A model generated the notes under the pieces. It was not told the DNA's origin, ran no database searches, and saw only the letters and a list, made by a program, of their open reading frames with translations. Source: Escherichia coli (lineage in GTDB: Bacteria; Pseudomonadota; Gammaproteobacteria; Enterobacterales; Enterobacteriaceae). From it: a stretch of 9,889 nt of DNA. Below are positions 3,470 to 9,639 of this stretch, one piece after another. Position 1 is the first letter of the stretch. Every line of letters starts with the position of its first letter. The translations under genes and the position numbers were made by a program. Location of the stretch: assembly GCF_003334785.1 (NCBI RefSeq), contig NZ_QOWV01000033.1; one strand, 5' to 3'.

Positions 3470-4279
3470 ATGAATACTATTGAACATGACATTACTTCAG
3501 ATAAGCCATTATCAATTAACATAAAAAATGTATTAGCACATAAACACTTAATAATTTATTTAGATCAGTGTGACATGAAAATGTATGTACATGGTGAGAC
3601 TCTATTTTTTAGAAAAGGCTCTCTTGTATCTATTGAGAGAGGCTTAAGATATAGCTGTAGTTTAAAAAAAATCTATGTAGAAGGACCACCCTTTAGATAT
3701 ATTGCTATAGACCAACATACAATAAAGCTTCTGAAGGATATATTTATATTGCTATATGGCTATAAACTTAATGAATCAATATTGGATAGAAAAATAACTG
3801 ACAAAATAATTAGTGTGTGGGGAAATAAAGGTGCCATAAGTGTATTCGAACTCATAACAAACTCACTGGATAATACAAAGAAAGCCATCAAAATTGCGTA
3901 CATGCTATCAAAAGTGGAAAAGTTTGATAAGATTATTCATTCAATAAACATTTCGGCGGCTAAGACATTCACGGACAAGGTTAGGGATCTTATCAGTAAA
4001 GATGTATCAAAAAAATGGCGTTTGAATAACATTGCCGATGAGTTTAATATTTCAGAAGTAACAGTCAGAAAAAGACTCGAATGCGAAAACACCTCCTTTC
4101 ATAATGTCCTCATGGACTTAAGAATGAATAGGGCTATACAATTACTGCACGAAAATGAGAGGCAAATTCATCAGATAGCAAGGCTTATTGGAATTTCCAG
4201 TCAATCATACTTTATAAAATTATTTAAAGATTATTACGGGATAACACCTAAACAATTTATTATTTACTTCAGAAGCTAA
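3470..4279 (+). CDS. AraC-family transcriptional activator of the Rns/CfaD/AggR/VirF subfamily (C-terminal HTH), divergent member
   Basis: 269 aa. The C-terminal half matches the remembered Rns/AggR pattern: SKKWRLNNIADEFNISEVTVRKRLECENTSFHNVLMDLRMNRAIQLLHENERQIHQIARLIGISSQSYFIKLFKDYYGITPKQFIIYFRS (compare Rns ..SRKWTLGIIADAFNASEITIRKRLESENTNFNQILMQLRM..YFIRIFNKHYGVTPKQFFTYFKG). The N-terminal part is more divergent. Gene is very AT-rich. Confidence 0.85.
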   Translation: MNTIEHDITSDKPLSINIKNVLAHKHLIIYLDQCDMKMYVHGETLFFRKGSLVSIERGLRYSCSLKKIYVEGPPFRYIAIDQHTIKLLKDIFILLYGYKLNESILDRKITDKIISVWGNKGAISVFELITNSLDNTKKAIKIAYMLSKVEKFDKIIHSINISAAKTFTDKVRDLISKDVSKKWRLNNIADEFNISEVTVRKRLECENTSFHNVLMDLRMNRAIQLLHENERQIHQIARLIGISSQSYFIKLFKDYYGITPKQFIIYFRS

Positions 4280-4326
4280 GGTGACCAATAATAATATTGG
4301 GCAAACAATTTATTTAAATAAAAAGC

Positions 4327-5151
4327 TTATTCATTTCCAACCAAGGGGAGAAAGGATGTTATGTGATATGTTTGCTTATTATCATAACTAACCTCCCCTA
4401 AACTAATTCGTTCAATAATACATTGTTCCAGCTTTACATTAATATAAAACAGGATAAACCTACCAAAAATAATGTAATCATCCCATATCCCACTAAAATC
4501 AATAGCCAGGCAATCTCCAGCATTTATATCATAAGTTGCTTTGCTGTCACTGCATCCTATAAAAGTTTGTAGATATATTTCAGATGTATATGTGCTTTTT
4601 GCTAGGAATCTAGTAACTATATAAACATTGGCATTGTTATGTAGTTTTTTTGTTATTTCTTTCAATCTTATATCATTAGCTCTTGAAGACGTTTTTTTTA
4701 GTAAAGTTTCTTTTATTGTGAACTCTTCACCATTTAGTTTTAACGTGCCTAAACTGGTCGTATACATGGCATACTGATAAGGGAATTTTGTGAGGCTTGG
4801 TGTAAAGGAAGAACAATCAAAATATTTTTGCTGGCGGAATTTTATGGGGGAGATTTGAAACTCTCGCTTGAATGCTCTTGTGAATGATTGTTGAGTGGAG
4901 AAATTTAACTCTGAAGAAATATTATCTATACTTTTCTTGGTTAGTTTTATTAATAATGCGGCTTGTGTTAATCTTCTTTTTTTTATATAGTCACTTATTT
5001 TTAATCCGGTAATTTCCTTAAATATTTTTTGAACATACCGTATACTGTAACCAGAGAACTTTGCAACATCAGATACGGTCATCATTAATTTATCATCAAG
5101 CCTTCTCTCAATTTTTTCTATGAGCATTTCTACTGTTTTATCTTTATGCAT
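4327..5151 (-). CDS. AraC/XylS-family regulator with N-terminal dual HTH (MarA/SoxS/Rob-like) and about 170-aa C-terminal domain of unknown function (possibly GyrI-like effector-binding)
   Basis: 274 aa. The N-terminal region SGYSIRYVQKIFKEITGLKISDYIKKRRLTQAALLIKL..FSTQQSFTRAFKREFQISPIKFRQ aligns by eye with MarA helices ([47 protein letters not shown]). AGGA ribosome-binding site upstream of the ATG. The C-terminal fold is inferred from architecture only. Confidence 0.7.
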   Translation of the reverse strand: MHKDKTVEMLIEKIERRLDDKLMMTVSDVAKFSGYSIRYVQKIFKEITGLKISDYIKKRRLTQAALLIKLTKKSIDNISSELNFSTQQSFTRAFKREFQISPIKFRQQKYFDCSSFTPSLTKFPYQYAMYTTSLGTLKLNGEEFTIKETLLKKTSSRANDIRLKEITKKLHNNANVYIVTRFLAKSTYTSEIYLQTFIGCSDSKATYDINAGDCLAIDFSGIWDDYIIFGRFILFYINVKLEQCIIERISLGEVSYDNKQTYHITSFLPLVGNE

Positions 5152-8687: not shown

Positions 8688-9435
8688 TATGAACTTTACC
8701 CTCTCCTCCTAAATCGGTAACAACACTCCATTCAACTTCAGTTTTATCAACTGTGTTAATTTTGTATTCCTTTATACTAAAAGGAGGGATGTAATCAGGT
8801 CTTTCAACCTCTTTTTTGTTGATAATTAGTTTTTTTATGTTTTGATAGTTTGGTGTGGGATTGTATGCTTTCAACACCCCATGGTCTTTTGACCATTCTA
8901 TTTCATTACCACTGCTATAATTAATCGGCGATATGCCTTTAGGGCGGTAAATTAATTTTATGCAACCCTCAACAGCCAGGTTCACACCTAGTGTTGTTTT
9001 TGATTTTTTTAATGCCTCACTATTTTCTGCAGCCCATGCATCTTCTTCTGTCGGAGGAACTCCTTTTGTACATAGCCAAAATAATGATTCTCTATCTTGT
9101 GGTAATGAGGAAATATCTTTACTATATACACGCAGTTTGCTATTTTGTCCCTCATTCAAACGAAACAAAGGCGGCGTTGTTAAAAATTTTTTTGTTTTTG
9201 TTTGTTTATCCTCCTCAATTATTCTTGTCTGAACAAGAATAGGATAGGTATGAGGATTTTTTACGGTTAGAAGTGCCCCCTTTGCCTCTTTATCAAGAAT
9301 AACTCTTGAACGATCGAGTCTGAGTGAAAACTCCTTAACATGTGTTGAAAATTTATTATCTGCATAACTATTGCTGGCTGCTAACGCTCCCCCCACCAAA
9401 AGACTTGTAAGTAAATTCTTTCTACTAATAAACAT
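8671..9435 (-). CDS. Periplasmic fimbrial chaperone (PapD-like)
   Basis: Signal peptide MFISRKNLLTSLLVGGALAASNSYA, then a chaperone N-domain pattern (SLRLDRSRVILDKEAKGALLTVKNP). The ATG at 9435 is preceded by AGGAGG at about 7 nt. The track ORF begins at a TTG at 9480, 15 codons upstream, with no ribosome-binding site. 254 aa from 9435. Confidence 0.85.
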   Translation of the reverse strand: MFISRKNLLTSLLVGGALAASNSYADNKFSTHVKEFSLRLDRSRVILDKEAKGALLTVKNPHTYPILVQTRIIEEDKQTKTKKFLTTPPLFRLNEGQNSKLRVYSKDISSLPQDRESLFWLCTKGVPPTEEDAWAAENSEALKKSKTTLGVNLAVEGCIKLIYRPKGISPINYSSGNEIEWSKDHGVLKAYNPTPNYQNIKKLIINKKEVERPDYIPPFSIKEYKINTVDKTEVEWSVVTDLGGEGKVHNETIK

Positions 9436-9639
9436 CGACAGGCCTCCTATGTAAAATGAAAACAATAACTGGTCGTGCAATGTGAATATGATAAAAAAAC
9501 AATAATTTTGTTTGTTGTGCGTATATTTTGGTATTTTTGCACTTTCAATTTGGCGGGTTTTATGTCTAGCTAAAACTTAGTTTTTTATCTCCGATGATAT
9601 TTATCTGTATCAACTTTAACTGACAAGAAGAAAGGTTTA
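9436..9639. promoter_or_regulatory. AT-rich divergent intergenic region: likely promoter/regulatory region of the chaperone-usher operon and of the short plus-strand ORF
   Basis: About 200 bp of AT-rich sequence between divergently oriented start codons (9435 minus, 9640 plus). Expected site of Rns/AggR-type activation, but no site could be assigned by eye. Confidence 0.35.

Follow-up and report, generated by a model that had tools for sequence, protein, structure and literature searches.

The 9,889-nucleotide stretch of Escherichia coli DNA analysed here (contig NZ_QOWV01000033.1, assembly GCF_003334785.1; hereafter the window) carries an AT-rich block, spanning approximately 3380–9520, within which lie six intact genes: a chaperone, an usher and a single fibre subunit (pilin) gene, all on the minus strand, and three regulatory genes, encoding an Rns/AggR-subfamily AraC activator, a Rob-type regulator and a small protein of the ANR (AraC negative regulator) family. 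The genes and the predicted control elements are arranged as follows, with the basis of each assignment in brackets.

3470–4279, plus strand: Rns/AggR-subfamily AraC activator (Rns-like), 269 aa (structure-chain and BLASTP alignment).
4327–5151, minus strand: Rob-type regulator, 274 aa, with an N-terminal AraC DNA-binding domain and a predicted C-terminal GyrI-like domain (Pfam, AlphaFold, Foldseek).
5177–5214, plus strand: predicted activator-dependent promoter of the ANR gene; GTATTTTTATC, 21 nt, TAGCAT (composite-motif scan).
5245–5424, plus strand: ANR family gene, encoding 59 aa when read from the ATG at 5245; starts at 5236 and 5245 in the list of open reading frames (ORFs) (NCBIfam NF033650).
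5455–5610, no strand assigned: IS200 end remnant with a GC hairpin at approximately 5566–5594, bordered on each side by A and T runs (sequence identity, hairpin read).
5623–6129, minus strand: single fibre subunit (pilin), 168 aa, distant member of the SEF14/CS22/CS15 family (Pfam PF06443, AlphaFold).
6163–6181, minus strand: GC-rich 7-bp hairpin, GCCCCUU-AAGUA-AAGGGGC (RNA fold z-score -2.7).
6188–6225, minus strand: predicted internal activator-dependent pilin promoter; GTTTTTTTATC, 21 nt, TATCAT (composite motif).
6231–8687, minus strand: outer-membrane usher, 818 aa (NCBIfam, FimD match).
8671–9435, minus strand: periplasmic chaperone, assigned by sequence to the FGL class, 254 aa (DraB/Caf1M/SafB matches).
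9462–9500, minus strand: predicted activator-dependent operon promoter; GTTTTTTTATC, 22 nt, TATTGT (composite motif).

A preliminary description of this DNA, made from its letters alone, had named the same six genes, and each of them was found, intact, where it had been placed, except that the upper end of the chaperone gene, given there as 9480, is replaced by 9435. The ATG at 9435 is the most likely start and is preferred to the TTG at 9480, since an AGGAGG precedes it and RefSeq uses the same start. The control regions of the locus reach to approximately 9500 and, upstream of the Rns-like gene, probably to approximately 3380. The AT-richness of the block, also part of that description, is evident from the composition profile, with GC contents of 0.29–0.40 as against 0.51–0.57 in the part of the window occupied by an insertion sequence (IS) and an intron. 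The pilin region (5500–6250; GC 0.42–0.48) is the exception, and its raised GC content may reflect either the Ala/Gly/Thr-rich composition of the pilin or a separate origin. RefSeq product names for the locus are generic (‘CD15/CS22/SEF14 family fimbrial major subunit’, ‘ANR family transcriptional regulator’, AraC or HTH proteins), and neither the RefSeq annotation nor the ORF list of the window contains a second subunit gene.

The chaperone, usher and subunit, the last with an all-beta fold in its model resembling that of chaperone–usher subunits, assign the operon to the chaperone–usher pathway. Against solved structures, the chaperone matches DraB (E 1e-50), Caf1M (6e-41) and SafB (1e-40), whereas FimC, PapD and SfaE are matched only at E 1e-15 to 1e-18; the matches to FimC and PapD are 25–35 orders of magnitude weaker than those to the FGL chaperones. 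Cysteines in the chaperone segments LFWLCTKG and EGCIKLIYRP align with the F1–G1 cysteine pair of DraB and Caf1M; as judged by its sequence, the chaperone is of the FGL class. The usher is full length and matches FimD (E 1e-128), with matches also to Caf1A domains; its nearest NCBIfam models are PRK15223 (506 bits), which we take, from the numbering of neighbouring Saf models, to be a SafC-type model, and SefC (444 bits), both under their cut-offs, with the PRK15193, LpfC and FimD models just slightly lower. The homologues at a related locus (L006; L-numbers denote the loci compared here), which are 80% identical, carry PapD_N/PapD_C and PapC_N/Usher/PapC_C domains.

The pilin matches the Pfam family SEF14_adhesin (PF06443) with an i-Evalue of 1.1e-5 (25.8 bits); the match is weak but full-length, covering residues 3–164 and positions 3–161 of the 165 in the model, and on this basis the protein is a distant member of the SEF14/CS22/CS15 family. 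Its own sequence family is small: only 12 of 1.84 billion cluster representatives match at E values up to 0.001 (phmmer). An AlphaFold model built with 21 family members as input (mean pLDDT 84) has an all-beta fold, and its best structural matches are all subunits of FGL systems, with SafA at the top, followed by DraD, SafD, HdaB, PsaA, MyfA, AggB, SefD, Caf1 and CssB. Residues 21–42, which follow the signal peptide and precede the first strand (residue 43), are unstructured in the model; this stretch contains alternating hydrophobic residues (VDVAASVDV), which are kept across the family, a pattern that a donor strand would be expected to show. In FGL systems, fibres contain no more than two kinds of subunit, and each kind supplies a donor strand at its N terminus; both the gene count and the model of the pilin agree with this. 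By analogy with the family, the chaperone and usher would link copies of the one subunit, through donor-strand exchange, into surface fibres that are thin and flexible, and the approximately 20-residue unstructured N-terminal extension of the subunit would serve as the donor strand.

The Rns-like protein aligns through residues 13–268 with residues 9–263 of Rns (PDB 6xiu; E 1e-58), with 42% identity over 254 residues (BLASTP), and also with CsvR (9gfp; E 1.5e-52). This similarity, which runs along the full length of the protein and includes its N-terminal domain, places it in the Rns/AggR subfamily. No NCBIfam equivalog cut-off is reached, and relatives at 48–84% identity carry no characterised name; the divergence that the preliminary description had perceived in the proteins of the locus is real, the identity to Rns being one instance. 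Taking H20 and R75 as the fatty-acid pocket residues of Rns, from the titles of PDB mutant entries, an ungapped alignment shows the first to be conserved (H24) and the second to align with an alanine (A79), with an arginine three residues earlier; fatty-acid control of the Rns-like protein may therefore differ.

The product of the small gene scores 51 bits against the ANR model NF033650 (cut-off 32), with the Rns-like gene 1 kb away, and RefSeq likewise annotates it as ANR family. For the Rob-type protein, Pfam detects the N-terminal HTH_18/HTH_AraC region only, the GyrI-like domain being undetected by sequence. Its AlphaFold model (mean pLDDT 88) has E. coli Rob (1d5y_A) as its top Foldseek match, over the full length (TM 0.72/0.69; E 5e-16), and two GyrI-like proteins, CTR107 and BmrR, are matched by its C-terminal half. 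The modelled architecture is that of Rob and Caf1R, namely an N-terminal domain with two HTH motifs followed by a GyrI-like (SHS2) domain, and the presence of the latter suggests that the protein senses a ligand.

Precedents for feedback between an ANR protein and its activator, and for the logic of Rns/AggR sites, have been described (PMC4983702, PMC6392122). AggR-dependent promoters contain an A/T tract that ends in TATC, with the -10 hexamer 21–23 bp downstream; the identity of the base that opens the tract matters little, and the functional aafD site reads GTTTATTTATC (PMC6392122). Simple WWWWWWWTATC matches number 7 against 2.1 expected, a count that we treat as weak evidence because the block is AT-rich and for which we substituted a composite motif, combined with conservation. 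The composite AggR/Rns-type pattern occurs three times in all on the two strands of the 6.8-kb AT-rich part (0.78 expected in shuffles), and all three occurrences are correctly oriented before a gene of the locus, namely the chaperone, pilin and ANR genes, with 54 nt (9500–9462, minus strand), 85 nt (6225–6188, minus strand) and 57 nt (5177–5214, plus strand), respectively, between the end of the site and the ATG. The 10-mer TTTTTTTATC is present in two copies in the window, where 0.07 are expected; both are on the operon strand, one at 6215–6224 and the other in the chaperone-promoter site. A generic sigma-70 promoter scan gave no excess over shuffles (24 sites against 25.7 expected), and the 7 terminator-like sites (3.8 expected) included none informative for the locus.

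The chaperone and pilin sites are kept at equivalent positions in L011, L006, L004 and L005, loci in which nucleotide identity falls as low as approximately 65% or less, and the pilin-promoter site persists in these loci although the intergenic sequence around it has diverged. Directly after the predicted pilin -10 lies the GC hairpin at 6163–6181; hairpins of different sequence occupy the equivalent place in L011, L004 and L005, and a weak one is found in L006. The ANR-promoter site recurs, with the same arrangement and distance, in the nearest relative of the regulatory genes (L017).

Together, these features suggest a mechanism in which, at each of three promoters, the Rns-like protein would most likely activate transcription from an A/T-tract-TATC site, with a weak -10 element 21–22 bp downstream. 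The first would drive the chaperone and usher genes; the second, internal to the operon, would drive the pilin gene from a transcript starting at a stabilising hairpin, giving an excess of subunit; and the third would drive the ANR gene, the product of which would bind and inactivate the Rns-like activator, as Aar does to AggR, so that the activator would promote synthesis of its own antagonist. The Rob-type protein probably feeds a host signal, for example bile salts or fatty acids, into this loop, which is the least supported of the proposed steps. Taken as a whole, we consider it probable that the locus is an intact, plasmid-borne chaperone–usher system of the FGL (‘polyadhesin’, gamma-3-like) type, with Rns-like activation at three promoters, ANR feedback and a Rob-type input.

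Several observations weigh against this interpretation. The TATC motif is short and the region AT-rich, such that any single site is weak and the argument for the predicted promoters depends on position and conservation; the site preference of the activator is assumed, given that it is only 42% identical to Rns; and the strict ANR-promoter pattern is absent from four more distant sets of the regulatory genes. The MarA/Rob/SoxS box (up to two mismatches) is not enriched, at 4 matches against 3.3 expected, and all of these are away from the promoters of the locus. As regards function, enteroaggregative E. coli (EAEC) strains with a related, CS22-like cluster adhered poorly to HEp-2 cells (PMC7251025), so an adhesive phenotype is not to be assumed. 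For the locus itself, the analysis establishes the gene identities, the modelled folds and the kept architecture of the motifs, together with the recurring cassette and the mosaic pilin alleles described below; binding, activation, feedback, ligand sensing and adhesion are inferred.

The recurrence of the three regulatory genes elsewhere bears on how the locus is controlled. Homologues of the Rob-type protein (40–87% identity) occur in E. coli, Salmonella, Citrobacter and Yersinia; we inspected eight independent contexts reached through these homologues and three plasmid contexts reached by tblastn. The ANR gene usually lies upstream of, and divergent from, the Rob-type gene (window type, L015, L016, L017, L018, L019 and L037), and an Rns-like gene usually lies just downstream (window type, L013/L014, L016, L017, L018, L019, L035 and L037), convergent with the Rob-type gene in all cases except L019, where it is 1.2 kb away on the same strand. 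The genes alongside this cassette vary: dispersin and Aat-like transporter genes are found in L013/L014, L015 and L017, Pap-like fimbriae in L016, L018, L037 and L035, and another chaperone–usher operon in the Yersinia locus L019. Between the window and L017, the Rns-like, Rob-type and ANR proteins are 75%, 74% and 64% identical, respectively; between L016 and L018 the corresponding values are 73%, 65% and 57%. The identities of the three genes thus rise and fall together, which is what co-inheritance as a unit predicts. The three-part regulatory module that had been proposed from the sequence is borne out in this respect, as the trio recurs as a cassette beside other adhesion genes.

Among 100,044 species-representative genomes, the C-terminal motif of the Rob-type protein was found only in Citrobacter sp. 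FP75, which indicates that the cassette is accessory and rare, albeit that such a scan is unsuited to measuring its breadth since the cassette lives in accessory genomes. No mention of a Rob-like partner of AggR, Rns or ANR proteins was found in the ANR, AggR and Aat literature searched. The context of the characterised rnr gene in enteropathogenic E. coli was considered as a comparison and discarded as uninformative; this gene lies in a Mu-like prophage and has no Rob-type neighbour. Two further homologues of the Rob-type gene lie in other surroundings: one on an Escherichia marmotae plasmid (L036, 9001–9855) adjoins IpaH-like NEL E3-ligase effector genes, and one on an E. coli contig (L020, 295–1137) adjoins an S6 autotransporter gene and a TcdA/TcdB-like toxin gene.

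What is new here is the tight linkage of the Rob-type regulator to the other two within a portable cassette, together with the predicted internal pilin promoter. A wider reading, which we advance only tentatively, is that the trio constitutes an undescribed, portable, three-component virulence switch of Enterobacterales and, jointly with this, that the product of the operon is a colonisation factor of human-gut E. coli, antigenically variable and uncharacterised, which would escape the typing schemes now used for such factors. On such a reading, the ligand-sensing Rob-type protein would couple a gut signal to the loop of activator and anti-activator, and the cassette would have been recruited repeatedly to drive the fibre operon, dispersin and Aat genes, and Pap-like fimbriae.

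Matches to the 6.2-kb block at 100% identity number only two among 72,556 plasmids, and these are also the only two carriers among the 5,426 complete E. coli genomes searched. The two plasmids are of type IncFII; one was obtained from Tokyo wastewater, the other from the human isolate FDAARGOS_1248. Both carry eatA, and the FDAARGOS_1248 plasmid also has a type VI secretion cluster; no enterotoxin genes are annotated in the portions of the two plasmids examined. Each of the six ORFs is intact, in the two complete plasmids as well as in the copies from metagenomes, and pilin alleles at 70–87% identity occur in many draft E. coli genomes, in one Salmonella record and in human-gut metagenomes. 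The mobile, accessory setting that had been suggested is confirmed by the plasmid location and by the IS3, IS66 and IS200 fragments around the locus.

To the left of the block (1–3100), an IS3-family transposase gene is interrupted by a group II intron, in agreement with the earlier observation of a neighbouring IS that carries a retroelement; the intron is identified by a match to Rfam RF00029 (Intron_gpII) at 2521–2607 (64.9 bits) and by a reverse transcriptase/maturase ORF at 994–2517. A 99.3% identical copy of the interrupted IS is present on an E. coli O157:H7 plasmid (L003) and on gut-metagenome contigs (L010 and L011). The IS200 remnant (150 bp) sits exactly between the convergent ANR and pilin genes and is 90–93% identical to the ends of IS200C, which are found in thousands of E. 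coli records; judging from the flanking A and T runs, the hairpin it contains (approximately 5566–5594) could act as a two-way terminator for the ANR and pilin transcripts. On the plasmid NZ_CP069544.1 (L012, 30205–30215) an activator-type pattern (TTTTTTATATC, 22 nt, TATCTT) is found 59 nt ahead of the gene that opens a type VI secretion cluster. This site recalls the control of the aai type VI secretion system by AggR in EAEC. It is to be taken as a lead only, as the count of composite motifs in a regulon scan of the rest of the plasmid (50 kb) was not above chance.

Comparisons between copies of the operon are informative as to selection. Relative to L006, dN/dS for the chaperone and usher lies within 0.11–0.17, with values of 0.11 for the chaperone and 0.15 for the usher. 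The comparison with L011 gives 99–100% identity for the regulators, the chaperone and the initial 600 nt of the usher gene, whereas from usher nucleotide 600 through the pilin gene identity is 89–93%, and within that tract the pilin has a dN/dS of 0.56 as against 0.15 for the usher; the mosaic recombination tract corresponds to 5623–8090 of the window, compared with 1781–4853 of L011. Within the operon, only two substitutions separate the two complete plasmids; each is non-synonymous and each falls in the pilin. Such mosaic variation, centred on the pilin, is what an exposed surface antigen would show.

Four alternatives to the proposed interpretation were considered. It is unlikely that the operon has the Rob-type protein, rather than the Rns-like protein, as its dedicated activator, in the manner of Caf1R at caf, with the Rns-like/ANR pair acting as a general virulence regulator of the plasmid that happens to lie nearby. 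The caf locus does combine a chaperone, an usher and a single subunit with a Rob-like regulator (PMC8470410), and the Rob-type protein here has a Rob-like modelled fold over its full length and an N-terminal domain 40.6% identical to that of Caf1R. The promoters, however, carry the Rns/AggR-type motif at its canonical spacing, and MarA/Rob/Caf1R-type boxes are neither enriched nor positioned at them; moreover, the operon relatives L006 and L005 lack a Rob-type gene, and the Rob-type gene accompanies the ANR and Rns-like genes where these adjoin unrelated cargo (dispersin–Aat genes and Pap-like fimbriae), which argues that it belongs to the cassette and not to this operon.

A further alternative is that the polymer is a capsule-like protective coat, similar to F1 antigen, or otherwise non-adhesive, instead of a colonisation factor. 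The caf gene order of this single-subunit FGL system would accommodate such a role, as would the poor HEp-2 adherence of the CS22-like EAEC strains noted above, but the nearest fold relatives of the pilin (SafA, PsaA, MyfA and DraD) come from adhesive or invasin systems, the locus is found on E. coli plasmids with eatA and in human-gut metagenomes, and its regulators are of the type that controls adhesins in enterotoxigenic E. coli (ETEC) and EAEC; we consider a coat or other non-adhesive polymer distinctly unlikely. That the locus is a silent or decaying remnant is improbable: the IS3, IS66 and IS200 fragments that flank it, and the IS200 remnant between the pilin and ANR genes, would fit decay, yet all six ORFs are intact, purifying selection acts on the chaperone and usher, no frameshifts accompany the diversification of the pilin alleles, and the promoter architecture is kept across diverged loci.

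The suggestion that the locus is simply a copy of CS22 (cseA) or CS15 (nfaA), to which the RefSeq product name (‘CD15/CS22/SEF14 family’) and the Pfam match of the pilin might point, can be dismissed with near certainty, as the published cseA and CS15/CS22 typing primers match neither the window nor its relatives, and, of the CS22 clusters that we recovered from human-gut metagenomes with one cseA primer, L028 has the order pilin–chaperone–usher–AfaD-like gene, with a pilin that is 38% identical to that of the window over just 77 N-terminal residues and a chaperone that is 33% identical. The order of this cluster is as reported by Boisen et al. (PMC7500659), and its CseA contains the peptides encoded by the typing primers; a phmmer search with the window pilin against the 1.84 billion representatives gave no match carrying the peptide motifs encoded by the CS15/CS22 primers. 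Identity with CS22 is refuted by the different gene order, the lack of an AfaD-like gene, the absence of the primer sites and the low pilin and chaperone identities. CS15 is excluded only via the primers and the peptides they encode, which are near-identical to those of CS22, nfaA itself not having been compared.

Beyond CS22, searches of complete genomes, plasmids and the literature gave no named and characterised operon that matches, in agreement with the preliminary description, and no description of, or name for, the locus was found in the literature searched. The new chaperone–usher loci reported by Del Canto et al. include no gamma-3 locus. Clinical ETEC isolates that lack a known colonisation factor make up at least 30% (PMC5624918) or 15–50% (PMC5216030) of the total, which limits vaccines based on such factors; an intact, eatA-linked fibre operon with several pilin alleles in the human gut is a concrete candidate for screening. 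The circuit of AggR or Rns with an ANR protein is a model for the timing of adhesin expression, to which a conserved, ligand-binding third partner would add a testable sensory input and a possible drug target. Inhibition by fatty acids has already been shown for Rns. The predicted internal pilin promoter, with its 5′ hairpin, would offer a simple and testable account of how surplus subunit is obtained from a gene at the distal end of the operon.

The layout had been thought to match nothing known, and here the preliminary description does not hold, since caf1M–caf1A–caf1 of Yersinia pestis has the same order of chaperone, usher and single subunit (PMC8470410). Nor are the class 5, Afa/Dr and AAF systems, against which the layout had been judged, the closest references; the pilin belongs, distantly, to the SEF14/CS22/CS15 family. 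The chaperone–usher–pilin order is also found, with pilins 32–50% identical, on other E. coli plasmids, including that of ETEC B7A type, beside an eatA-like S6 protease gene. One such distant relative (L005, 4586–8369, on the ETEC plasmid p203740_80; the B7A plasmid CP006002.1 is of the same type) has a pilin 32% identical to that of the window; on the plasmids of several GEMS-type ETEC isolates it adjoins the gene for an S6-family (EatA-like) protease. It keeps the TATC/-10 architecture before both the chaperone and the pilin genes and, like the locus in the window, appears to be unnamed.

With the caf locus, the system described here shares a gene order, namely FGL chaperone (Caf1M, E 6e-41), usher and single subunit, as well as a Rob-like AraC regulator, Caf1R consisting of a DNA-binding domain at the N terminus and a GyrI-like domain at the C terminus (PMC8470410); the similarity of the Rob-type protein to Caf1R (40.6% identity) is limited to the DNA-binding domain. 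The differences are that the subunits are unrelated in sequence, that the Rob-type gene is placed downstream of the pilin gene, where caf has its regulator, Caf1R, upstream of and divergent from caf1M, and that caf has neither an Rns-like activator nor an ANR gene; the promoters here are of the Rns/AggR type and not of the Mar-box type. With AggR–Aar and Rns/CfaD–Cnr, the locus has in common an activator of the Rns subfamily, an ANR protein of approximately 60 aa, and an A/T-tract-TATC site 21–23 bp upstream of the -10 element at fimbrial and anti-activator promoters (PMC6392122, PMC4983702). It differs in that its activator is 42% identical to Rns, in a clade whose members have no characterised name, and in having a third, tightly linked gene, that for the Rob-type protein.

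The Saf fimbriae (safABCD) provide the best NCBIfam chaperone model (SafB), the sole NCBIfam match of the pilin (SafA, weak) and its top structural match (SafA). All scores of the window proteins, however, fall far below the model cut-offs, and saf has the order subunit–chaperone–usher–adhesin, with a separate tip adhesin (SafD), and no such regulator cassette. CS22, CS15 and SEF14 share with the locus the Pfam family PF06443, assembly genes of the FGL type, an AraC-type regulator nearby and a location on ETEC/EAEC plasmids, but have the order pilin–chaperone–usher–minor subunit, with an AfaD-like or SefD gene. The locus is thus real and intact, is unnamed in the sources searched, and is a variant built from known kinds of part: an FGL system with the caf-type gene order, a distant SEF14-family pilin and an Rns/ANR circuit.

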